Notes: generated from the sequence alone by a model not told the origin. Positions 637 to 26,637 are shown, counted from the stretch's first letter. The stretch: 64,000 bases of DNA from Candidatus Woesearchaeota archaeon (GCA_964372205.1 CAYJQB010000001.1:13180-77179), one strand, 5' to 3'. Translations and numbers: made by a program.

Positions 637-3234
637 TTAGTTCCCGCCTTTACTTTCAATAACACCCATTTGTAACTTATGCATTCTTCTTAAGAATTGC
701 AGTTTTTCTTCCATTCTTATAAGGTCTGCATGGCTTTGTAATATCAAACTCAATCCAAATGGAGAAACAAGAGGAGTTCTTACTTTCTTCACTTTAATCT
801 TTCCTTTCTCAATAGCATCAAGAATCGCCTTAGCCCTGTGTATGTCCATAACATCCTCAAGAACCTCTCTTCTAGCCTCTTGAAGTATAGGAAACTCGTT
901 ACTTATTTTTTGAACCGCAGCAAGTAAAAAGTGGGAATGCATCTGTTGTTTTCCAACAGTCTTGCTCCTCCCCTTATAATTTCTCAGTATCATTAAGCTT
1001 CTTGAAGCGCAATGCCTAAACCTTCTTCTTAAAACATCAGTTTTTTCAATAGCCTCCTTCAATATTAATTCAATATCTTTTGCTTTAACCCATTTCAAAA
1101 TCTTCTCTTCGTCAAGTTTCTCCCCAGCAATATAAAATCCATTATCGTTTATTCCAATTTCTATATCTCTATGCTTTAAACGAGCGGCCGCAAACCCGTA
1201 AACTCTAGAAAGCGCATCATTCACGCGTCGGCCGTACATACTATGAAATAACAGGTATTCTTTATCACTCTTGAACTTTTCAACTATAAGTTCTTTATCA
1301 GTAGGTATTTCACTAAATCTCGCCTGTTCCGAAAGATAGTCACACATCTGTTCGGCTTCAACATCATCGCAATAAAGATACTCCTTGATAAATTCAATCG
1401 TTTTTTCTTTGTTTTTTATCTTTTCCTTTACAAGCCCCCTGAATTTAGCAATATCTATAGCAACATCATAACTAAGAGGCAACATCTCCGAAAACCAAGA
1501 AGGAATGGTTGGACTTTTAGACACGTCCGCAATAACATACGCTTTCATCCCCTGGCTTCTAACAAACTGATACTTTTGCCCTCCCAAAACAAAAACATCC
1601 CCTCTTTTCATTTTTTCAAGAAAAGCTTCGTCTATCTTCCCAACAATCTGCCCCCTCTTTTCCACTGGAGCACTTATAACTACAGAAATGAACCCCTCTT
1701 CAGGGATTGTTCCTATATTAGTCATATAAATTATTCTCGCAGTCTTTCCTCTCTTTCCAATCTCTCCAGTACCTACATCATACCATATTTTTGCATAAAC
1801 ATTTCTGTGTTCTAAAGCATAATCACCCGCAAGATAAGAAACAACTGCAAAAAAATCTTCCTTACTCAAGGTAGCATAACAATAACTTTTTCTAATAACT
1901 TTTAACATGTCTTCCGCTTTCCAAATTTTTGAAATAGCCATCCCATATATCTGCTGAGCAAGAACATCTAAAGCGTTTTTAGGAATATCCACCTTGTCTA
2001 TTTTGTTTTCTATCATACTCTTCATCATTACTCCACACTCAATAAGGTCGTCCCTATCCGTCACAATAAACCTTCCTTTAGGATTACTATGTAACTTATG
2101 TCCCGCTCTTCCAATTCTCTGCAACGCCCGGGCAACACCCTTAGGAGATCTAAGCAAAACTACAAGGTCCACATTCCCGATATCAATTCCCAGTTCAAGA
2201 CTTGTACTACTCACAACAACTTTCAATTCCCCTTTTCTAAGCTTGTCTTCAATCTCAAATCTTTTTTCTTTGCTCATTGAACTATGATGCGCACCAATAA
2301 GTTCATTATATTTACCTGGAAAGTGCAAATCTAAATAATGAATTATTCTCTCAGTGGCAGCCCTCGTGTTAGTAAATATCAAAGTAGTCTTATGAGTCTG
2401 AATAAGCTCGTCTAAAATTCTATACATTTCTTTCTGACTCTCCACACTGTCTGCTTCAATCAAGTCTCTAGCAGGAGAGATTAGACCAATATCTACTTTT
2501 TTCATTAGTTTTACCTTCGCAATCAAGCAGTCTCTTCCATCCCCCACTAAAAATTTTGCAATCTCTTCCAGAGGAGCAATAGTAGCACTCAACCCAATAC
2601 GCACAGGTTCAATAAGACTAAAATCACAAAGTCTTTCCAGAGTCAAGCTCATATACACCCCTCTTTTATTGGCCATAGCGTGAATTTCATCAACAATGAT
2701 AAATTCCAAGGCTGTAAGATTCTCAACAAATTTAGTTGTAGTAAGAACAATGGCAAGACTCTCAGGAGTTGTAACATAAATATGAGGCACCTTTCTGGTG
2801 TGCTTTGCTCTTTCAGAAGCAGTAGTATCCCCGGTTCTAACACCAACTCTAATCTCTTGCATTTCAATTCCTTTTTCTTTAGCAAGGGCGTATATTTCTT
2901 TAAGAGGAGCTTCAAGGTTTACAAAAATATCATTGCTCAGAGCCTTCAACGGAGAAGTGTAAACAGCATATATTTTATCCTCAAGTTCTTTTTTAAGAGC
3001 AAGTCCAACAAGATAATTAATGATTCCAAGAAAAGCAGTAAGGGTTTTTGTCCCTCCGGTCGGTGCACTTATCAGTATATTTTTTCTATCGTATATTGTT
3101 TTTACCCCGTACAACTGTGTTAAAGAAAAGTCTTCAAATTTCCTAAAAAACCATTCAGCAACAATCGGATGCAATATCTTTCTTACTTCAGCAGCAGCAT
3201 AGGGCTCTTCCATAAAGGCAATTTCCCGAGCCAT
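637..3234 (-). CDS. lhr: Lhr-core superfamily-2 (SF2) ATP-dependent DNA helicase (865 aa)
   Basis: Walker A is APTGGTKT, motif II is DEIH and motif III is SAT. The size fits Lhr-core, and a co-oriented MPE gene lies directly downstream. Confidence 0.85.
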   Translation of the reverse strand: MAREIAFMEEPYAAAEVRKILHPIVAEWFFRKFEDFSLTQLYGVKTIYDRKNILISAPTGGTKTLTAFLGIINYLVGLALKKELEDKIYAVYTSPLKALSNDIFVNLEAPLKEIYALAKEKGIEMQEIRVGVRTGDTTASERAKHTRKVPHIYVTTPESLAIVLTTTKFVENLTALEFIIVDEIHAMANKRGVYMSLTLERLCDFSLIEPVRIGLSATIAPLEEIAKFLVGDGRDCLIAKVKLMKKVDIGLISPARDLIEADSVESQKEMYRILDELIQTHKTTLIFTNTRAATERIIHYLDLHFPGKYNELIGAHHSSMSKEKRFEIEDKLRKGELKVVVSSTSLELGIDIGNVDLVVLLRSPKGVARALQRIGRAGHKLHSNPKGRFIVTDRDDLIECGVMMKSMIENKIDKVDIPKNALDVLAQQIYGMAISKIWKAEDMLKVIRKSYCYATLSKEDFFAVVSYLAGDYALEHRNVYAKIWYDVGTGEIGKRGKTARIIYMTNIGTIPEEGFISVVISAPVEKRGQIVGKIDEAFLEKMKRGDVFVLGGQKYQFVRSQGMKAYVIADVSKSPTIPSWFSEMLPLSYDVAIDIAKFRGLVKEKIKNKEKTIEFIKEYLYCDDVEAEQMCDYLSEQARFSEIPTDKELIVEKFKSDKEYLLFHSMYGRRVNDALSRVYGFAAARLKHRDIEIGINDNGFYIAGEKLDEEKILKWVKAKDIELILKEAIEKTDVLRRRFRHCASRSLMILRNYKGRSKTVGKQQMHSHFLLAAVQKISNEFPILQEARREVLEDVMDIHRAKAILDAIEKGKIKVKKVRTPLVSPFGLSLILQSHADLIRMEEKLQFLRRMHKLQMGVIESKGGN

Positions 3235-4063: not shown

Positions 4064-4333
4064 ATGCCACAGATATCTAAACCAAAAAGAGACAAAATCT
4101 CAGAGCAAATACTCCACTTCCTATTTTCCATCTCTCCAGAATCAATTTTTACATCAAAAATAGCCCAAGAAATCATAAGAGACGAAGAATTCACAAAATC
4201 TCTTCTCCAAGAATTAGAAAAAAACAAACTAGTGGTAAAAATAAAGAAGTCTCCTCAAGGTTCAGATTACCAAAGGAGAGAACGTTGGAGACTTTCCAAT
4301 GAAGTCTATGAAGTTTTCAAGCAGCGACAATAG
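4064..4333 (+). CDS. Small hypothetical protein (89 aa), possibly wHTH
   Basis: Found from the ORF track; it has a charged helical C-terminus. There is no firm family assignment. Confidence 0.3.
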   Translation: MPQISKPKRDKISEQILHFLFSISPESIFTSKIAQEIIRDEEFTKSLLQELEKNKLVVKIKKSPQGSDYQRRERWRLSNEVYEVFKQRQ

Positions 4334-4817: not shown

Positions 4818-5543
4818 ATGCAGGAAGACAAAATAAAGGAATCTTTCGCTAACGTAAGGCAAGACATAGATTATCTTTACTACGAGATTCAAGAATTAAA
4901 ACGAACTATAGAAGAAATAAAAGAACTTCAGACAGAAATACTCAAGAAACAGACAGACAACAGACAATCAACAGACACTTCGACACATAATTTGCCTTTA
5001 GAAGACGTAAAAAGCCCAAATTTAACAATCTCCAGTGGAAATGAAGGGGTTCCAACAGACAGACAGACAGACCAACAGACAGACAGACAACCCCCCCATT
5101 TCCTATGGAATAAGAGAGAAAATCTTCAAAATCTATCTTCAAACAACTCAGAAATACACATAAAATCATCAGAAAAAGACAAAATAATGGAAAAATTACC
5201 AATTTTAGCCCAGCTGCACAGGGCCTCAGAATTCCTAGAATCATTAGACGAACTCAAGAAGGAAGTTCGCGTTAAGTTTAAAAAATTAACCTCTCAAGAA
5301 ATGCAAGTGTTTAGTAAAATATATGAATTAGAAGAACAAGGATTAATTGTAGATTATACTCTTCTTGCAGAAAAGCTTTCTTTAACAGAAAGTTCAATAA
5401 GAGATTATGTTCTTAGGTTGATACGAAAAGGAATTCCCGTCGAGAAACACAAAGAAAACAACAAAAGAATAACTCTTTTTATATCAAGAGAATTAAGAAA
5501 AATAGCGCCTTTAGAAACTATTCATCAACTAAGATCCATCTAG
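4818..5543 (+). CDS. Coiled-coil / C-terminal winged-helix DNA-binding protein, paralog A
   Basis: The N-terminus is heptad-rich (ELKRTIEEIKELQTEILKK). The C-terminal HTH (LSLTESSIRDYVLRLIRKG) is alignable with the 5848-6558 protein. The gene contains in-frame (AGAC)n repeats and a C7 tract. Confidence 0.5.
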   Translation: MQEDKIKESFANVRQDIDYLYYEIQELKRTIEEIKELQTEILKKQTDNRQSTDTSTHNLPLEDVKSPNLTISSGNEGVPTDRQTDQQTDRQPPHFLWNKRENLQNLSSNNSEIHIKSSEKDKIMEKLPILAQLHRASEFLESLDELKKEVRVKFKKLTSQEMQVFSKIYELEEQGLIVDYTLLAEKLSLTESSIRDYVLRLIRKGIPVEKHKENNKRITLFISRELRKIAPLETIHQLRSI

Positions 5544-5585
5544 GGAGTTTTCCGGAACACCGAATAAATTTTTAAAGTTTCCACT

Positions 5586-5900
5586 ATGTCAAATTTAAGC
5601 TTTTTAGAGCTTTAAATGCTCAAATTTAAGCTTTTTACTTTTTCCCACCTCAGAAAAATTGCTCACCAGAGGCAATTTTCCCTCATTTTTCCACGAACTT
5701 TAATTTTTTGCACAACTGATCATACTCACTTTTCAACAATTCTTAAAAAACAAAGAAAATCACTCACTTTTACATCAAAATTGAATCCTTTACAATACCC
5801 AAAGGCACTCACTTTTCCACTTTTTTTGAACATTTTTATATCTCTCCTCACTTTTTTTGTTTTTTAGCTGATTTTTTATCTCCCCCAACTCTCACTTTTG
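5586..5900. repeat. Periodic iteron-like direct repeats between the two convergent wHTH paralogs
   Basis: CAAATTTAAGCTTTTTA occurs twice (5590 and 5621). The motif (A/C)CTCACTTTT occurs five times (about 5717, 5763, 5808, 5847 and 5891) with a 39-46 bp period. Confidence 0.6.
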
Positions 5901-6558
5901 CATATTTTAGCAGTTTTTCCCTGATTTCTTCTGGCACATAGACTCTTTTTTTACCATTAGGTTCGGTTAACTCATACACCAAACCCTCACTTTTCTGTTT
6001 TATTGAGTTTATTTGGCCTCTAATTGTAGATCTCTCTTTTCCTAAAAGTCTAGCTAAGTCCTCATAACTAAGTTTCATCTCTTCTTCGGCATTCAAAAGG
6101 GTAAAAACTATCAATCTTTCATTAGCCGACAATTGTTGCAAAATTTGATGAAAATTGGCTGTTTGGACAGCTGTTTGAACAGGTTCTTGAACAGGATAAA
6201 CAGCTGTTTGTTTATCAACACCTGTTTGTTTTTTAAACACCTGTTTGCCTTCCTTTGCAAAATTAATCAAAGAAACAGCCTCTCTGATACTTTCAACCTC
6301 ATCTTGAATCGACGATATTTCCACTCTTAACTCATTTAACACATCAAACAGCTGTTTATCTTTGTTATCTAGGTGTTTAATCCACTTTCCAACTTTGTCA
6401 AAATCATCCTTAACTTCTTGAAAACCCCTTTTAGTGTTTTCTTCCAGTTTTTCTACCTTCTTTTTTCCAGAAAACCAAAACATACTATTTTTTAAACACC
6501 CATCTTTATAAATATTACGCTCAATAAGCCCGGAAAACAGCATTTCAATAAATCCCAA
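5848..6558 (-). CDS. Coiled-coil / C-terminal winged-helix DNA-binding protein, paralog B
   Basis: Same architecture as 4818-5543; the HTH reads LSYEDLARLLGKERSTIRGQI. The gene contains AAACAGCTGTTT palindromes that encode QTAVQT repeats. Confidence 0.5.
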   Translation of the reverse strand: MGFIEMLFSGLIERNIYKDGCLKNSMFWFSGKKKVEKLEENTKRGFQEVKDDFDKVGKWIKHLDNKDKQLFDVLNELRVEISSIQDEVESIREAVSLINFAKEGKQVFKKQTGVDKQTAVYPVQEPVQTAVQTANFHQILQQLSANERLIVFTLLNAEEEMKLSYEDLARLLGKERSTIRGQINSIKQKSEGLVYELTEPNGKKRVYVPEEIREKLLKYAKVRVGGDKKSAKKQKK

Positions 6559-6564
6559 AATAGC

Positions 6565-6685
6565 ACACTTAAACAGCTACAAACACCCTTAAACACCCTA
6601 GGATTTTTTTTAAACAGCTGTTTAAACACCCTTAAACACCCGTTTATCGTCGGTAAATTGTTTAAACACCCTTAAACACCCCAAA
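6565..6685. promoter_or_regulatory. Iteron array upstream of wHTH paralog B
   Basis: The unit AAACACCCTTAAACACCC occurs three times (6581, 6623 and 6663) with a ~41 bp period. AAACAGCTGTTT palindromes are interleaved. Confidence 0.55.
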
Positions 6686-6828
6686 ACAGACCCGTTTCAG
6701 CTAAAAAATTCAAAAAACTCTCCCAAAAGTCTAAAATAGTGCAATTTTTTCAAAAAATTGGAGGAAATATATTTAAACACTACTTGCTTCTAAAAGATAC
6801 TTAATAGAGGTTAAAAGGAGGTGTCAAA

Positions 6829-6972
6829 ATGAAATCAGGTTGGCAAAGTTGGTTAGCTTTGATTGGTGGTATTGTTGCTTTAGTTGGGCAATGGGTAGCA
6901 GGTTATTATTTACCAGCTATAGGCGGAATACTAGCAGTTATAGGCGGAATCGGCGCAATGACATCTAAATAA
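6829..6972 (+). CDS. Small hydrophobic membrane protein (47 aa), not in the ORF track
   Basis: An AAAGGAGGTG Shine-Dalgarno site lies 7 nt upstream of the ATG. The translation MKSGWQSWLALIGGIVALVGQWVAGYYLPAIGGILAVIGGIGAMTSK forms a glycine-zipper transmembrane hairpin. Confidence 0.45.
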   Translation: MKSGWQSWLALIGGIVALVGQWVAGYYLPAIGGILAVIGGIGAMTSK

Positions 6973-7100
6973 ACCGAATAAATTTTTTATTTTTTAACCT
7001 CTTTCTTATTATTTTTTCACACAATTTAAAAAAGAATTTGCCTCAACAGGAGTGAGGCGCGAAGCGCCGAGCGCGCTCGACATAAGAAAACAGAATCAAA

Positions 7101-7451
7101 ATGGCAGAAGAATTTACAAAAAAACAACAAAAAGAAGTAGAGAAAGAAGTAGAAAAACAAGTAGAAAAACGACTGAAAATCTACGAAAAACTGCTCAAAG
7201 AAGGACATGTTTTCAGATCAGAATTCAAAAAAGAAGCATCCACGGCCATAATAGCAGCATTCGGTTTTCTGATAGCTCTTTCATGGAAAGACTTTGTCAC
7301 AAAAATTGCTGAGAATCTTCAAGGCACAGGCATTATGGTTCGGTACCCATACTTAGCAGAGCTGTATGTTGCAGTAATTATTACTGCATTCTCAGTAATA
7401 GGTATAATGCTCATTTCCAGGTGGGCAAAAAAAGAGGATAAAAACAAATGA
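7101..7451 (+). CDS. Membrane protein with a lysine/glutamate-rich N-terminal repeat (116 aa)
   Basis: From the ORF track. It has KEVEKEVEKQVEK repeats and two transmembrane segments, and is a paralog of 7448-7747. Confidence 0.5.
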   Translation: MAEEFTKKQQKEVEKEVEKQVEKRLKIYEKLLKEGHVFRSEFKKEASTAIIAAFGFLIALSWKDFVTKIAENLQGTGIMVRYPYLAELYVAVIITAFSVIGIMLISRWAKKEDKNK

Positions 7452-7974: not shown

Positions 7975-8145
7975 ATGCAAAGTAAATGGTATGGTTGGCT
8001 GGTTCTTTTGATAGGAATTCTATTAATAATCCCAATGTTTGGAGTCGCAGCATTAGGCACGTTAACTTCAGGATTTATTGGTTGGTTCATTCCAATAATA
8101 ATCATCCTCCTAGGAATTCTAGGTATAACGAAAGCTAAAAAGTAA
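7975..8145 (+). CDS. Small membrane protein (56 aa), not in the ORF track
   Basis: An AAGGAGGTAAAAG Shine-Dalgarno site precedes it. MQSKWYGWLVLLIGILLIIPMFGVAALGTLTSGFIGWFIPIIIILLGILGITKAKK is similar in style to the 6829-6972 protein. Confidence 0.45.
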   Translation: MQSKWYGWLVLLIGILLIIPMFGVAALGTLTSGFIGWFIPIIIILLGILGITKAKK

Positions 8146-8159
8146 TGCTAAAACCTTCT

Positions 8160-8215
8160 GCTTTCGCCTAAAACTTCCAACATAACTAATAAGTTCGGAT
8201 TAAGATATTAACGAT
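8160..8215 (+). promoter_or_regulatory. Repeated promoter/leader element, copy 1
   Basis: The sequence CTTTCGCCTAAAACTTCCAACATAACTAATAAGTTCGGATTAAGATA is near-identical to copy 2 and overlaps copy 3. It is followed by an AT-rich TATA-like tract. Confidence 0.5.
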
Positions 8216-8247
8216 AAAATTATAAACCTCCAATTACTAAATTAGTC

Positions 8248-8397
8248 GTGAAAAACGTTAAAGCATTCATAGGAATTCTATTAATCTTATTGATAGTTTT
8301 AGTTTTCTTTGTACCTCTGGGTTCAGGAATGTTTCCTTATATTTTAGTAGGAGTCATACTTCTAGGTCTTATTTGGAAAGTAGCTAAATGGTTTTAA
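8248..8397 (+). CDS. Small membrane protein (49 aa, GTG start), not in the ORF track
   Basis: VKNVKAFIGILLILLIVLVFFVPLGSGMFPYILVGVILLGLIWKVAKWF follows copy 1 of the repeated promoter element. The start codon is uncertain. Confidence 0.35.
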   Translation: MKNVKAFIGILLILLIVLVFFVPLGSGMFPYILVGVILLGLIWKVAKWF

Positions 8398-8466
8398 TCA
8401 ATTTAAAGGATTTATGTGTAAATACTTCGCACAAGATACATTAACTGAACTCAAGAAAAATTCGGG

Positions 8467-8724
8467 TTAAGCAGCAGAGTATTTTCTATCGTAATTTCTA
8501 TCAGCTAGACCTTGTCCAAGACCAAAAGCAAGACTTTCGAAAACACCGCGAGGCCTAGGAATTTGACCTTTCAATTCTCTCTCTTCTTCAACTACCGCAT
8601 TTATACTTGCATCAGACATGAAGAAAATATCTCCATCGTGTCTATGCTCTATATTTGCTTCTCTTCTCCCATTTTGATAAGCTTGTCCTAATCTATCAAC
8701 CCTACATTTTAATCCTTCAAACAT
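8467..8724 (-). CDS. Hypothetical protein (85 aa)
   Basis: ORF only. Confidence 0.35.
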   Translation of the reverse strand: MFEGLKCRVDRLGQAYQNGRREANIEHRHDGDIFFMSDASINAVVEEERELKGQIPRPRGVFESLAFGLGQGLADRNYDRKYSAA

Positions 8725-8804
8725 CTTTGAGTTTAACTTATTTTATTATTAAATATTTGTTGACTGGAAAGTATATTTTTTAGTCCACTCTTGTGCTAAA
8801 ACTT

Positions 8805-8870
8805 CCTGCTTTCGCCTAAAACCTCCAACATAACATATAAGTTCGGGTTAAGATAAATTTAAAAAGTTGA
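8805..8870 (+). promoter_or_regulatory. Repeated promoter/leader element, copy 2
   Basis: CTTTCGCCTAAAACCTCCAACATAACATATAAGTTCGGGTTAAGATAAATTTAAAAAG has a TTTAAA TATA-like box about 30 nt before the ATG at 8887. Confidence 0.5.
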
Positions 8871-8886
8871 ATTATTAAGAAACAAG

Positions 8887-9234
8887 ATGGATAATGGAAG
8901 AATCTTTAGAGCAGCAGGTTGTTTTGCCTTAGCAGCAATATCTTTCAAGACTAGCCAAGTTCTTTATAACGATTTCCTCAATATGCTTGCAGCACATAAT
9001 CCAGACACATCCTTAGTTCATCGAAGAGAAAGCCTTCCTCCACACTATATAGAAAAAATGAGTAATCGAGACTCAGACATTAAGGTTGAAATGGCATTAC
9101 GTGACGTGTTCGGAAGTATTGGAACTCTTGCAGCTTCAAGTTACTTAACTGCCCTCGGTGTTAATTTAGCAACCAGTAGGAGAAGATATGCCCCCGAGAG
9201 AGAACACCCAAGCCAAGGTTTAGAAAATTCTTAA
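8887..9234 (+). CDS. Hypothetical protein (115 aa)
   Basis: ORF downstream of promoter copy 2. Confidence 0.4.
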   Translation: MDNGRIFRAAGCFALAAISFKTSQVLYNDFLNMLAAHNPDTSLVHRRESLPPHYIEKMSNRDSDIKVEMALRDVFGSIGTLAASSYLTALGVNLATSRRRYAPEREHPSQGLENS

Positions 9235-9244
9235 TTTACACGCA

Positions 9245-9300
9245 AAAACCTCCAACATCATAGATAAGTTCGGATTAAGATAAATTTAAAAAGATAAGGT
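9245..9300 (+). promoter_or_regulatory. Repeated promoter/leader element, copy 3
   Basis: AAAACCTCCAACATCATAGATAAGTTCGGATTAAGATAAATTTAAAAAG lies 14 nt before the ATG at 9314. Confidence 0.5.
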
Positions 9301-9313
9301 ATTAAGAAAAAAC

Positions 9314-9736
9314 ATGTCACATCAGATAGGTTCAACGGACAGAGTAACCTTGGAAGGAAGAACTTTCGATGTTGAATTGAGACCCCACCACCGAGGTGAA
9401 ACCTATTCAAAGTGTGAAGTCGACTGCCCGGAGGGATGGCAAATTCCGATTTATTCTCTCTTACAAGGCATGAGAAATAATCCAGAATATAAAGAAAGAT
9501 TTGGTTTACTTATGATCTCCGAGTTTGTCCAAAATCCTGACGAAATCTCAAGACAGAAAGGTCTTGCCGCTTGGTTCTTTGCGAATTCGGCCGGAGCCGG
9601 CCTGAGTTGCTTTAGGGATCCTCAGAACAAAAGTCCTCTGCTCGGGGTACGTTACGCCCGTGAAATTTCTCAAGGACAACCAAATCCCGACAAACCAATA
9701 GATCCAGATGGAACTGGTGATTATCAAACACATTAA
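9314..9736 (+). CDS. Hypothetical protein (140 aa), noticeably more GC-rich than its surroundings
   Basis: ORF downstream of promoter copy 3. GC-rich stretches such as GCGAATTCGGCCGGAGCCGGCCTGAG stand out from the AT-rich neighbourhood. Confidence 0.45.
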   Translation: MSHQIGSTDRVTLEGRTFDVELRPHHRGETYSKCEVDCPEGWQIPIYSLLQGMRNNPEYKERFGLLMISEFVQNPDEISRQKGLAAWFFANSAGAGLSCFRDPQNKSPLLGVRYAREISQGQPNPDKPIDPDGTGDYQTH

Positions 9737-9747
9737 ATCTATAAAAT

Positions 9748-9984
9748 ATGACAAGAAGAAAACCCATAAGAAATCTTTTAGCAATATCTGCAATTGCCTT
9801 AGGAGTTTCTCAACTAGATAACTTCAGACCTGAACTTCACAAAGCATACCAAGAAACGTCTGCAGTAATTAGAGGAGAAAAAACATCTTTCAAAAAAGAG
9901 GACTTCAGTTCGAGAGAAATTCTTGCAGGCACACTTTACACATCAAGTTTATTAGGAGCAATTTATCTAATTACAAGAAAATGA
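9748..9984 (+). CDS. Hypothetical membrane-anchored protein (78 aa)
   Basis: ORF with an N-terminal hydrophobic segment and a C-terminal transmembrane segment. Confidence 0.35.
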   Translation: MTRRKPIRNLLAISAIALGVSQLDNFRPELHKAYQETSAVIRGEKTSFKKEDFSSREILAGTLYTSSLLGAIYLITRK

Positions 9985-10340
9985 GTAACTTAAAAAAAAT
10001 AATCGGACTAGGAACGGCATATACTGCATCATTTGCATTTGGATTTGCAAAAGGAATAAGTGCAGAGCAAGGATTTCCAATAACTGATACTCATTTAGAC
10101 GACACTCTAATGGCAGGGGTTCCATTTCTAAGCGCAATTATCGGAGCTAAAACTTTTCCAACACATTCAGACACCGAACGCGAAATGGAAAGATATCATC
10201 AAAGACCAACAGGAATGGAATACGCCCTCATTTCTGGAGAAAGAGCAGTTGGCGCAGGACTTGGCTTCGTCGGTTCTGTAATATCTCTCGGGTTAGGTTA
10301 TACTTTAGGATACACGGGCTCACATATTTTAAATCGTTAG
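9981..10340 (+). CDS. Hypothetical glycine-rich membrane protein (119 aa)
   Basis: Overlaps the previous ORF (ATGA). It has glycine-zipper-like segments. Confidence 0.4.
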   Translation: MSNLKKIIGLGTAYTASFAFGFAKGISAEQGFPITDTHLDDTLMAGVPFLSAIIGAKTFPTHSDTEREMERYHQRPTGMEYALISGERAVGAGLGFVGSVISLGLGYTLGYTGSHILNR

Positions 10341-10354
10341 AAATATGAATTAAT

Positions 10355-10684
10355 CTAATCTCCTAACGGCTCAAATCTAAAAGTGTCAATAGTATAATAA
10401 TCTCCGATTCTCGTCCAGGGTGTTTCTATTCTCAAGGATGAACCCAACAAACTCTCTGATTCAAGCTGAGCAATTTGTTTACCAATTTCATCGATTTCTT
10501 CAGGTTCCAGTCTTTTGTTTTGGTTAGTGTCAAACCTTTCCATAACACCTGGCCCATACTCTCCGAGTCTTTGAGCATATTTGTCCCGATTCGAGTCTAA
10601 CGCGTAAGTCACGATTATGGAAGAAGTTAAAGCAGCCACAGCTATAATTCCGTTATTAGCTGTCAGAATTCTCGGTATTTTCAT
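10355..10684 (-). CDS. Secreted protein with an EF-hand-like calcium-binding loop
   Basis: A signal-peptide-like N-terminus (MKIPRILTANNGIIAVAALTSS). The loop DTNQNKRLEPEE matches the 12-residue EF-hand pattern (D1, N3, N5, E12). Confidence 0.4.
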   Translation of the reverse strand: MKIPRILTANNGIIAVAALTSSIIVTYALDSNRDKYAQRLGEYGPGVMERFDTNQNKRLEPEEIDEIGKQIAQLESESLLGSSLRIETPWTRIGDYYTIDTFRFEPLGD

Positions 10685-10718
10685 GGATTGTTTTAAGATG
10701 AGAAGTTTTTAACGATTT

Positions 10719-11153
10719 CTATGCAACAGCGCCAGCCAATCCAAAGTTAGAATCTTCACAGTCCTCCTCGTTTCTCCTTGCCATGATTTTTCTTAATCTT
10801 TTAGACATGTTCTTCTTTCTTATAGCCCTGTTACATCCTTCTACAAAGCAATGATAATCTGTAATTGTTGCAGGAATTGTATTTGAACGTTCTGGCTCAA
10901 TTTCCGCACCGTTGGCGCCCAAATCATAGACTCGTCCATTCACTGGAAGAGTTTCAATTTCTATTCTATCGTGTTCACCAAGAATTTTCCTTTTAATCAT
11001 TCGCTCACCCAAAGCAAGAGCAGAGCCATTTGGATCCTCATAGGTTTTTCCGTTAACCAAGCAATAAGCAACTCTTCTATCAGCTAATCCAAGATTTTCA
11101 GAAGGAACACGTTCAAAATAAAGAAGCACTCTGCGAGATTTATCGCGCCCCAT
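10719..11153 (-). CDS. Hypothetical protein (144 aa)
   Basis: ORF with a possible Cys/His cluster (HCFVEGC). Composition is GC-richer than the neighbours. Confidence 0.35.
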   Translation of the reverse strand: MGRDKSRRVLLYFERVPSENLGLADRRVAYCLVNGKTYEDPNGSALALGERMIKRKILGEHDRIEIETLPVNGRVYDLGANGAEIEPERSNTIPATITDYHCFVEGCNRAIRKKNMSKRLRKIMARRNEEDCEDSNFGLAGAVA

Positions 11154-11203
11154 TTTAATAACCTTCAGAAATCTACATTTTTAATGATATCGGTGCTGTA
11201 AAA

Positions 11204-17352: not shown

Positions 17353-17436
17353 TGCGGGGAGAAGGATTCGAACCTTCGCAGGCACTAAGCCAACACGGCC
17401 TTAACGTGTCCCGTTTGACCGCTCCGGCATCCCCAC
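17353..17436 (-). tRNA. tRNA-Leu, class II; the anticodon loop reads TTAAGGC (anticodon AAG as read)
   Basis: By manual folding of the reverse-complement, the acceptor stem is GUGGGGA/UCCCCGC with discriminator A. The anticodon stem ACACG/CGTGT is perfect. It has a long variable arm and a GGTTCGAATCC T-arm. Confidence 0.7.
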
Positions 17437-26122: not shown

Positions 26123-26237
26123 AGAAGACAGCATCTGTGCTTCGCCTCTGTTCGGAGACTAACACACCAGACGTGGCAGGCTTAACTTCTGTGTTCGGAA
26201 AGGGAACAGGTGTTTCCCAACCACTATGGCCGTCTTC
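26123..26237 (-). rRNA. rrf: 5S ribosomal RNA
   Basis: The reverse-complement contains GGCCATAGTGGTTGGGAAACACCTGTTCCCTTTCCGAACACAGAAGTTAAGCC, the universal 5S loop-C/helix-III signature. The terminal helix is GAAGACGGC/GCTGTCTTC. Confidence 0.7.
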
Positions 26238-26315: not shown

Positions 26316-26399
26316 GCGGGGATGCCGGAGTGGTCAAACGGGACGGACTCAAGATCCGTTAGCTTAGTGCTTACGAAGGTTCGAATCCTTCTCCCCGCA
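26316..26399 (+). tRNA. tRNA-Leu(CAA), class II
   Basis: By manual folding, the acceptor stem is GCGGGGA/TCCCCGC with discriminator A. The anticodon stem ACGGA/TCCGT flanks loop CTCAAGA. It has a long variable arm. Confidence 0.8.
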
Positions 26400-26400
26400 T

Positions 26401-26475
26401 GCTCCCGTAGCTCAGCCTGGATAGAGCATTGGGGTCCTAACCCAAGGGTCACAGGTTCAAATCCTGTCGGGAGCG
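26401..26475 (+). tRNA. tRNA-Arg(CCT)
   Basis: Acceptor stem GCTCCCG/CGGGAGC. Anticodon stem TTGGG/CCCAA flanks loop GTCCTAA. T-loop TTCAAAT. It starts 1 nt after tRNA-Leu. Confidence 0.75.
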
Positions 26476-26521
26476 TTCTAAAAGCAAATCTTTAAAACCC
26501 ACTTCTCAATAGAATAAACAT

Positions 26522-26593
26522 GCGTGGGTAGTTCAGTGGTTAGAATCTCGGCCTTCCAAGTCGATGACCCGGGTTCGAATCCCGGCCCGCGCA
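26522..26593 (+). tRNA. tRNA-Gly(TCC)
   Basis: Acceptor stem GCGTGGG/CCCGCGC with discriminator A. Anticodon stem TCGGC/GTCGA flanks loop CTTCCAA. T-loop TTCGAAT. Confidence 0.75.
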
Positions 26594-26637
26594 TGCTTAA
26601 TTAAACTTTTAAACCCTCGCAGTTTAGTGTTTTTATC

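Follow-up and report, generated by a model that had tools for sequence, protein, structure and literature searches.

Type II plasmid centromeres (ParR/parC) and omega-type operators consist of tandem iterons of 7-11 bp that lie across the promoter of the operon encoding their own binder, and bacterial organisers of the origin region (Spo0J with parS inside spo0J, RacA with ram, MaoP with maoS) join a helix-turn-helix (HTH) to a coiled coil and have their sites in or near their own gene. The oriC2D region of Haloarcula hispanica is analogous to datA of E. coli. This region, rich in origin-recognition boxes (ORBs), is located downstream of cdc6E and negatively controls oriC2, probably by titrating the initiator (PMC3936714), while in Thermococcales a cluster of ORBs and mini-ORBs is found inside dp1, the gene for the small subunit of PolD, where it is bound by Cdc6/Orc1 (PMC1904270). 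The replication origins of DPANN archaea and their control are essentially unstudied, and a full-text literature search for origins of Pacearchaeota or Woesearchaeota returned nothing relevant. Here we describe a locus of two convergent genes, A and B, in a 64,000-nt stretch of DNA from Candidatus Woesearchaeota archaeon (GCA_964372205.1 CAYJQB010000001.1:13180-77179), which we call the window and whose coordinates are counted from its first letter. Our reading, in which we have moderate confidence, is that the locus represents a conserved origin-proximal nucleoprotein satellite module of the Nanobdellota chromosome, and is neither a mobile element nor the origin itself.

The window is AT-rich (GC content ~35%), and its proteins find their matches in DPANN archaea labelled Pacearchaeota, Woesearchaeota or Nanoarchaeota. 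The two genes face each other across a spacer of 304 bp:

4818-5543, + strand: gene A, an open reading frame (ORF) of 241 aa.
5848-6558, - strand: the ORF of gene B, convergent with A.

An initial annotation of this stretch had proposed, as one possibility, that the pair belongs to an integrated plasmid-like element or an indel. We surveyed one genome per species and obtained 80 loci encoding B (numbered with the prefix L below); in 79 of these an A homologue is located directly downstream of B in convergent orientation, and the 80th ends at a contig edge. The contigs bearing the locus reach 886 kb, and on the six long ones the gene order, listed as continuation and not by transcription direction, runs XerA-like recombinase ... 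DHH/RecJ-like ... DUF5654 genes, B, A, small genes, Lhr helicase, metallophosphoesterase, a gene of ~140 aa, PRC-barrel, an AT-rich gap, orc1/cdc6 and PolD DP1, with DP2 after DP1 in L083, L085 and L087. Because gene order and neighbours are kept across species, with 79 of the 80 loci next to Lhr, orc1 and PolD, the plasmid-like element or indel is ruled out, and we firmly conclude that the locus is a core chromosomal, lineage-wide module beside oriC, with A and B as single-locus partners. The spacer between A and B measures 150-882 bp in the species loci (median 287), which is an unusual length between convergent genes in compact genomes.

The link to replication that the initial annotation had suspected is borne out by a pair of ORBs inside gene A and by the proximity of oriC. 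The elements found within A are the following:

5031-5050, + strand: ORB-a, TCCAGTGGAAATGAAGGGGT, a canonical origin-recognition box encoding S-S-G-N-E-G-V in the linker of A.
5051-5089, + strand: a (CAGA)n / CCAACAGAC-repeat stretch between the ORBs, encoding PTDRQTDQQTDRQ.
5090-5109, - strand: ORB-b, TCCATAGGAAATGGGGGGGT, an inverted second box whose G-string faces ORB-a.
4897-4908, - strand: an AGTTCGTTTTA motif in the region coding for the coiled coil of A, where K-R-T is written AAA CGA ACT.

In ORB-a the dyad TCCA-NN-GGAAA precedes a G-string, and the boxes upstream of orc1 in the relatives are built likewise. Taken with its flanking C, ORB-a contains a 16-nt core, CTCCAGTGGAAATGAA, that matches the reverse-complemented P. 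furiosus ORB2 oligonucleotide at every position, and this oligonucleotide is bound in vitro by Cdc6/Orc1 (PMC1904270). When an ORB-like site was defined by at most five mismatches in 20 positions, we found one within A in 76 of 79 loci, and over 73 loci the consensus is TTTCCAcaGGAAATGAAGGGGTTCCAACAGACAGACAGACA with TCCAACAGACAGACAGACA as the consensus after it; moreover, the A residue that varies between S, T, I and K maps to the variable central dinucleotide of the box. The A genes of relatives have 1-3 boxes. An inverted partner is present in 18 loci, mostly ~58 bp downstream of the sense box and in L016 and L022 ~87 bp upstream of it, while in other loci the second box is direct at 57 bp, and in a few (L016, L022, L087) the ORBs stand back-to-back. 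The CAGA stretch itself is one of the repeat families of the window. The ORB pair in A is a putative target of Orc1/Cdc6. Elsewhere in the whole window only one more ORB-like site was detected:

1650-1669, - strand: TCCAGTGGAAAAGAGGGGGC, inside the Lhr-type helicase gene at 637-3234 (0 expected), encoding APVEKRGQ with G-ending codons.

This 20-mer is identical in L081 and L084, and only a subset of the 51 Lhr orthologues carry such a site, so that as a family-wide element it was rejected as lineage-restricted; it is either a lineage-specific extra Orc1 box or a coincidence.

Constraint on the locus was also seen at synonymous positions. We built codon tables over 76 species and found that outside the motifs the codon entropy of both genes equals the background. 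Gene A holds a frozen block at aa 71-91, I-S-x-G-N-E-G-V-P-T-D-R-Q-T, written ATC TCC AGT GGA AAT GAA GGG GTT CCA ACA GAC AGA CAG ACA. Within ORB-a the codon TCC is used in 95% (background 20%) and GGG in 93% (background 29%); in the CAGA stretch GAC reaches 100% against 45% and AGA 98% against 47%; and at the AGTTCGTTTTA site CGA is used in 97% against 14%. In gene B the fixed positions are these:

KQLF: AAACAGCTGTTT; CAG 100% against 43% and CTG 89% against 12%.
NKQVF: AAACAGGTGTTT; GTG 100% against 20%.
LSSI: TTATCGTCGATA; TCG 89% and 87% against 14%.
KVRV: AAAGTGAGAGTT, the reverse complement of CTCACTTT; GTG 100% against 20% (V197).
KSEG: AAAAGTGAGGG; AGT 96% against 36% (S165).

In QT[APG]V motifs written CAAACA-SS-TGTT, glutamine is CAA in 125 of 132 cases (background 49%), threonine is ACA in 122 of 132 and alanine is GCT in 90 of 91, and the A/P/G variation tracks GCT/CCT/GGT, just as the motif varies in intergenic DNA. 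Because the synonymous sites are frozen exactly at the motifs, selection acts on the DNA, and the 'conserved peptides' are its consequence. Peptides such as STGNEGVPTDRQTD and QTAVQT are thus 'conserved' because the DNA is, a warning against reading motifs of this kind as protein features. In summary, ~1.7 kb (5030-6690) is dense in short elements whose sequence is kept from species to species and which limit the choice of synonymous codons in both genes, making the locus an unusually clear example of cis-elements overprinted on coding sequence. The ORB pair, the fixing of synonymous sites and the stem-loop described below all fall within the region that the initial annotation covered and are absent from it.

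The canonical origin was located by comparison with those related loci that reach orc1. In all five of them (L081, L083, L084, L085, L087) orc1 is 5-7 kb from gene A, and the gap between the PRC-barrel gene and orc1 contains inverted ORB-like boxes, both partners being within five mismatches in three. Where both boxes were called, their G-strings point outward. Between the boxes is a (TA)n-rich region with a GC content of 20-29%; a further box is found near the orc1 promoter in the oriC of relatives. The distance from the boxes in A to the oriC of these relatives is 5-6.8 kb. Since position 1 of the window aligns to position 17184 of L084, the closest relative (87% nucleotide identity), oriC is expected ~0.9-1.3 kb left of the window, upstream of orc1-dp1-dp2; orc1 was not among the ten mid-size window ORFs (372-535 aa) that were scanned and, by the L084 alignment, is likewise situated to the left. 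GC skew was uninformative, because the window lies wholly on one side of the inferred origin.

A replication origin at the A/B locus itself, as the initial annotation had also suggested, does not agree with this arrangement. Such an origin would be a second, iteron-type one or an extension of oriC: A or B would act as a WhiP/Rep-like winged-helix initiator on the direct repeats, Orc1 would be brought in by the ORBs, and unwinding or priming would take place in the AT-rich, stem-loop-bearing spacer. With its direct repeats, its boxes for the host initiator, its AT-rich spacer and a winged-helix gene alongside, the locus does mimic iteron replicons and Sulfolobus oriC3/WhiP (PMC4010727), weak DnaD_N and HTH_36 matches occur in some family members, and the boxes of L016, L022 and L087 stand back-to-back as at true origins. 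However, a textbook oriC lies 5-7 kb off in the same genomes, upstream of orc1, and no orc1/cdc6 adjoins A/B; between the facing ORBs of the window lie 39 bp of (CAGA)n, which are not AT-rich and contain no (TA)n unwinding element; searches of A and B against Pfam and NCBIfam gave no match to Rep_3, RepA winged-helix or WhiP/Cdt1 signatures; and genomes of 0.55-2.7 Mb (10.64898/2026.05.13.725050) hardly need two origins 6 kb apart. We regard a second origin as very unlikely, and from the sequence features listed we take the A/B locus to be origin-proximal and not a classical origin itself.

Two further observations concern the same neighbourhood. The motif (A)GTTCG(C/T)TT(T/A)A, present in the window at 4897-4908 and 5689-5700, occurs in A coding sequence, in A-B spacers and in canonical oriC gaps, with copies in relatives at L081 18539, L083 16792, L085 16330 and 16609, and L087 16482. 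Although A, the spacer and oriC are enriched in this motif, the rest of the related loci has 0.24 copies per kb, by a rough estimate well above chance, and these copies are for the most part intergenic and in a single orientation. GTTCGYTTWA was thus rejected as origin-specific; probably it is a regulatory or terminator-associated motif of wide occurrence. In addition, an ORB-like sequence with 4 mismatches, TCCTGGAGAAATGAAGGGGC, is located inside the dp1 (PolD small subunit) gene of L081 (20139-20158, + strand) and also found in L082, and may echo the Thermococcales arrangement.

A second set of sites surrounds the start of gene B. The ORF runs to a TTG at 6558, which yields the 236-aa reading, but the ATG at 6483, giving 211 aa (5848-6483, - strand), is almost certainly the true start, because most of the listed homologues are 205-230 aa long, all those aligned share the MF(W/G) N-terminus, and the TATA box falls within the extension from the TTG. 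Around this start we identified:

6488-6512, - strand: core promoter of B, with the TATA box TTTATAAA at 6505-6512 and one GGGTGTTTAA unit between TATA and ATG.
6565-6690, - strand: tandem array of ~8 10-bp units, in the sense of B GGGTGTTTAA / AGCTGTTTAA, in three clusters ~41-43 bp apart and including AAACAGCTGTTT at 6612-6623.
6163-6357, no strand: intragenic AACA[GC][GC]TGTT palindromes at 6199, 6217, 6236 and 6347, plus GGACAGCTGTTTG at 6165.
6308-6316, no strand: ATCGACGAT palindrome inside B, where L-S-S-I is TTA TCG TCG ATA, with a near-copy upstream at 6644-6656.

Two of the repeat families that had been reported from the initial reading were recovered here. The one described as three copies about 41 bp apart corresponds to AAACACCCTTAAACACCC (6581, 6624 and 6664, spacings 43 and 40; 0 expected), and the palindrome said to occur at least five times upstream of and within B corresponds to AACA[GC][GC]TGTT, with five copies in the locus (6199, 6217, 6236, 6347, 6613) and one elsewhere in the window; its longer form AAACAGCTGTTT has three exact copies (6198, 6346, 6612) and one with a single mismatch (6235), against 0.47 expected. 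The palindromes in B encode the peptides KQTAV, VQTAVQT and KQLF in differing reading frames. We counted the motifs across species in 77 loci, with ~440 kb of flanks for comparison, and observed that [GC]TGTTTA has a density of 9.8 per kb upstream of B versus 0.29 per kb in the flanks, and that AACASSTGTT is present in 333 copies upstream of or inside B versus 35 in the flanks. The spacing of TGTTT upstream of B peaks at 10-12, 21 and 31-32 bp, and the ATCGACGAT motif also recurs upstream of B in many loci. A TTTATATA box is located ~25 nt ahead of the ATG of B in all loci inspected for the B promoter, and in about half of them a TGTTT unit or AAACAGCTGTTT palindrome stands between TATA and ATG; from its placement, the GGGTGTTTAA unit of the window would occupy an operator position. 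The promoter of A carries no such arrays.

The proteins encoded at the locus are predicted to bind DNA. Protein A has 1190 homologues, all from DPANN and with ~45-55% identity, while B has 2452, those listed being 56-96% identical. Pfam, NCBIfam and PDB-sequence searches with A and B gave only sub-threshold matches to generic HTH or coiled-coil entries, and among 34 family members 11 matched DnaD_N with E 1e-4 or weaker, some also giving weak HTH_36 matches. In AlphaFold2 models built with family alignments, A has an N-terminal helix (2-46), a disordered linker (47-122), a helix (123-155) and a winged helix (159-240), with pLDDT, the model's own confidence score, ~90 in the structured parts, and B has a helix (4-82), a disordered segment (79-108), a MarR/ArsR-like winged helix (111-197) and a Lys-rich basic tail. 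Foldseek matched the C-terminal domain of A to MarR and MepR and that of B to MepR, CadC and MexR; E-values were ~2e-4 to 1e-3, the top matches including MepR, MarR, MexR and SlyA. Both proteins thus have the MarR-type winged-helix fold by Foldseek, but no MarR model of Pfam exceeded its gathering score with A or B and the MarR dimer architecture is also absent. In these models, both proteins join a long helix of the dimerisation type to a MarR-like winged helix through a flexible linker, and the heptad-rich N-terminus and C-terminal HTH that had been described for both are supported. The description of the two as alignable paralogs stands only for their winged helices, where profile-profile comparison aligns the C-terminal 64 columns (82% probability, E 1e-5); over the full length BLASTP finds no similarity, and paralogy would extend at most to the DNA-binding domain. 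The N-terminus of B, MF(W/G)(L/W)F..KK, has an invariant Phe2 and then lysines ahead of the long helix, and could be a membrane- or partner-binding peptide, which we note as a lead. A third candidate is encoded nearby:

4064-4333, + strand: a gene for an 89-aa stand-alone winged-helix protein upstream of A on the same strand, with weak HTH_69, EarA and FaeA matches.

The conserved C-terminus of this protein is visible upstream of A in relatives, and an 89-91-aa gene adjoins A in L083-L087; it is a predicted third candidate binder. As targets of these winged helices we propose the TGTTTAA, AACAGCTGTT and CTCACTTT duplexes as candidates.

These data could also be explained if A and B were ordinary autoregulated transcription factors, with TGTTTAA units and palindromes as their operators, CTCACTTT as operators or terminator-associated elements, the ORBs making A an Orc1/Cdc6 target, and the proximity of oriC being incidental. 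The MarR-like folds, the units between the TATA box and ATG of B in about half of the inspected loci, the near-confinement of the motifs to the locus within the 64 kb, as for a local regulon, and the array-free promoter of A would all suit such a regulator. On the other hand, a simple operator would not require ~8 units upstream, 5 palindromes within the gene and as many as 7 units in one direction, maintained at a codon cost in >70 species; the ORBs co-localise with them; the synteny with oriC, orc1 and PolD is fixed; and a long coiled coil with a long linker is not MarR architecture. We consider ordinary autoregulation possible but on the whole improbable as a complete account. Cooperative binding of winged helices to iteron-like arrays, which the initial annotation had put forward, is reasonable.

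The third family lies in the spacer and the 3' part of B, together with a stem-loop:

5725-5994, + strand: six CTCACTTTT units arrayed in the same direction; units four to six overlap the stop and 3' coding end of B (the KVRV and KSEG codons).
5650-5685, no strand: stem-loop consisting of TCAGA, a 7-bp stem (5655-5661 with 5673-5679), a loop of 10-14 nt, and CCCTCA.

The CTCACTTTT copies start at 5725, 5763, 5808, 5847, 5891 and 5986, with spacings of 38, 45, 39, 44 and 95, where five copies about every 45 bp had been reported before; no other copy exists in the 64 kb, 1.45 would be expected, and none of 100 shuffles reached six. A looser 8-mer adds only three copies window-wide. Across the 77 loci CTCACTTT is present in 267 copies, each of which lies in the spacer or in the 3' part of B, against 19 in the flanks, with 1-7 copies per locus, and within the coding sequence of B and the spacer the orientation is 267 one way and 0 the other. 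Both proteins and both motifs are retained in all 79 loci. The repeat families are thus found where they had been described and almost nowhere else in the window, homologous loci carry them too, and they are not a genome-wide low-complexity motif. Spacings of 41-46 bp had been interpreted as four helical turns. This fits the window, and the TGTTT ladder is phased, but helical phasing of CTCACTTT across species was rejected (Rayleigh R 0.02 at 10.5 bp); its spacings look like a ~9-bp ladder or are simply variable, with p-values inflated as the loci are related. A small spacer ORF called by some gene finders was rejected as well, as the repeat units fall in different frames.

The stem-loop is kept in at least 48 loci. 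In an alignment of 42 loci, compensatory changes were found at 7 of 7 pairs, with 50 double-change cells versus 8.5 in shuffles (0 of 500 shuffles reaching 50), and 89.5% of cells are paired versus 32-51% when the partner is slid. None of 294 cells is a G-U pair, and the fold is weak (-7 kcal/mol, z -1.6). Rfam run on the window and the locus returned nothing in the spacer or flanks at gathering score, and for 5400-7000 only chance-level matches (E >=0.7).

A role at the RNA level would account for part of this: the spacer transcript would carry the stem-loop between UCAGA and CCUCAC, and the one-stranded CUCACUUU (or AAAGUGAG) would be RNA motifs or backstop terminators against convergent collision. 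Covariation at all 7 stem pairs, the absolute strand bias of 267 to 0 and CTCACTTT spacing free of a 10.5-bp phase point in this direction, and each unit ends in a T-run, a general termination signal in archaea. Yet there is no Rfam match, the stem is weak at -7 kcal/mol, strictly Watson-Crick pairing with 0 G-U in 294 cells is unusual in RNA helices, the units inside B are kept in different frames, the conserved CTCAC part is not required for termination, and the ORBs and TGTTT arrays are left unexplained. As a rival to the satellite-module model this account is quite unlikely in our view; an RNA-level or termination role limited to the stem-loop and the CTCACTTT units is plausible and compatible with that model.

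In the satellite-module model, Orc1/Cdc6 would occupy the ORB pair in A as satellite boxes, comparable to the Thermococcales dp1 cluster or Haloarcula oriC2D, and the occupied boxes would serve locally as a sink for the initiator and/or as a roadblock to transcription, which would couple expression of A to Orc1 occupancy. A, B and possibly the 89-aa protein would form coiled-coil dimers with tethered DNA-binding heads, which may bind cooperatively to the TGTTTAA units and AACASSTGTT palindromes (in the B promoter, at the operator position and in the gene body) and also to the one-directional CTCACTTT array of the spacer and B 3' end. B would thereby be repressed, and next to the origin a large complex would form, which modulates initiation or organises or anchors the origin region. 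Auto-repression of B by promoter occlusion, roadblock or looping would fit the units between TATA and ATG, the tandem 10-bp units and the intragenic copies.

Several findings weigh against this model. In a compact and highly syntenic genome, the locus could lie close to oriC through historical accident. How many ORBs A contains, and whether they are facing, back-to-back or direct, varies by lineage, which argues against a fixed helicase-loading geometry. Three winged-helix genes and Orc1 are all candidate binders for the motifs, while the winged helices of A and B are generic, sub-threshold in Pfam and show nothing replication-specific. Moreover, CTCACTTT is not helically phased and its strict strand bias also fits an RNA-level or termination role, and covariation of the stem-loop is not explained by sequence-specific binding to duplex DNA.

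A more ambitious interpretation, which we consider unlikely, is that A/B and the arrays constitute a Nanobdellota-specific origin-handling system free of any nucleoside triphosphatase (NTPase), in which the proteins coat a ~1.5-kb centromere-like region next to oriC, communicate with Orc1 via the ORBs, and tether or organise the origin region or, alternatively, gate initiation; here the invariant N-terminus of B, MF(W/G).F..KK, hydrophobic and then basic, might act as an anchor to the membrane or to a partner. If true, ultra-small archaea would possess a replication or segregation accessory of a new class, whose own coding sequences contain its cis sites. A partition system in the strict sense, as had been suggested, is not what we find, since a search of six loci detected no ParA/CbiA, actin-like or SegA-like partition NTPase within 10 kb on either side.

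Some features next to the module were recorded separately. ACCGAATAAATTTTT occurs after the stop of A (5559-5580) and after a small gene ending at 6973 (6973-6994), and a ACCGAATA element follows the A stop in most related loci; both likely represent a conserved transcript-end signal, a generic terminator context. At 7051-7083 we noted a GC-rich element, GAGGCGCGAAGCGCCGAGCGCGC, with flanks GCCTCA...TGAGGC, which precedes the DUF5654 gene at 7101 by ~20-45 nt. It is present in 1-3 copies in 53 of 79 related loci (at ~3712 in L001, ~3750 in L009 and ~3759 in L011, among others), in constant orientation, mostly 5' of small membrane-protein genes, and without an Rfam match; its conservation in AT-rich genomes suggests a structured RNA of the 5' untranslated region or a protein-binding site. 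Just past the DUF5654 genes, collinearity with L084 is lost at ~8000-11200, where only short repeated fragments are common to both, against 84-87% nucleotide identity elsewhere, so that this part is a variable island of small ORFs. Further along, ARAGORN called a tRNA-Leu(aag) at 17353-17436 (- strand) for which the tRNA model of Rfam gave nothing at gathering score, while a 5S rRNA at 26123-26237 and a cluster of three tRNAs at 26316-26594 were consistent among the tools covering them. A scan for bacterial promoters and terminators was set aside, as the host is an archaeon.

With this locus the oriC neighbourhood of Pacearchaeota is defined at the level of sequence and includes a satellite pair of Orc1 boxes that is conserved. 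The locus also yields two uncharacterised lineage-wide predicted DNA-binding proteins and their candidate sites, which can be tested with recombinant proteins and oligonucleotides and require no cultivation. Each ingredient has precedent, but we found no description in the searchable literature of the combination, of the protein family or of overprinting on coding sequence to such a degree.

Compared with the MarR/ArsR family, A and B share the fold of the C-terminal domain, as matched by Foldseek, but reach no Pfam threshold and have an N-terminal helix of 45-80 residues and a disordered linker of 30-75 residues in place of the N/C-terminal helical dimer interface. With Spo0J, RacA and MaoP they have in common a DNA-binding domain joined to a coiled coil and clustered would-be cognate sites by the origin, some within the gene of the binder, whereas there is no kinship of sequence or fold beyond a generic HTH, and the present system is archaeal and known from sequence. 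As in ParR/parC and the omega operators, tandem 10-bp units are clustered upstream of and across the promoter of an adjacent DNA-binding gene in a helical-repeat ladder; unlike ParR/parC, there is no ParM, ParA or SegA NTPase nearby, the would-be binder is a winged helix and not a ribbon-helix-helix, the locus is chromosomal and lineage-wide, and the sites enter coding sequence. Like oriC2D, the locus places initiator boxes apart from the origin proper yet near it, which makes a sink or regulatory role plausible, but it has 2 boxes (1-3 in relatives) where oriC2D has 11, they are intragenic and not intergenic, and what is known of them comes from sequence. The Thermococcales dp1 cluster differs in that the host gene here encodes an uncharacterised winged-helix protein, with the boxes in its linker-coding part, on the other side of oriC beyond Lhr, and accompanied by two further repeat families and a stem-loop. 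In both cases, however, canonical ORBs are situated in protein-coding sequence a few kb from oriC in an organisation conserved across the order, and the core CTCCAGTGGAAATGAA is identical over 16 nt.

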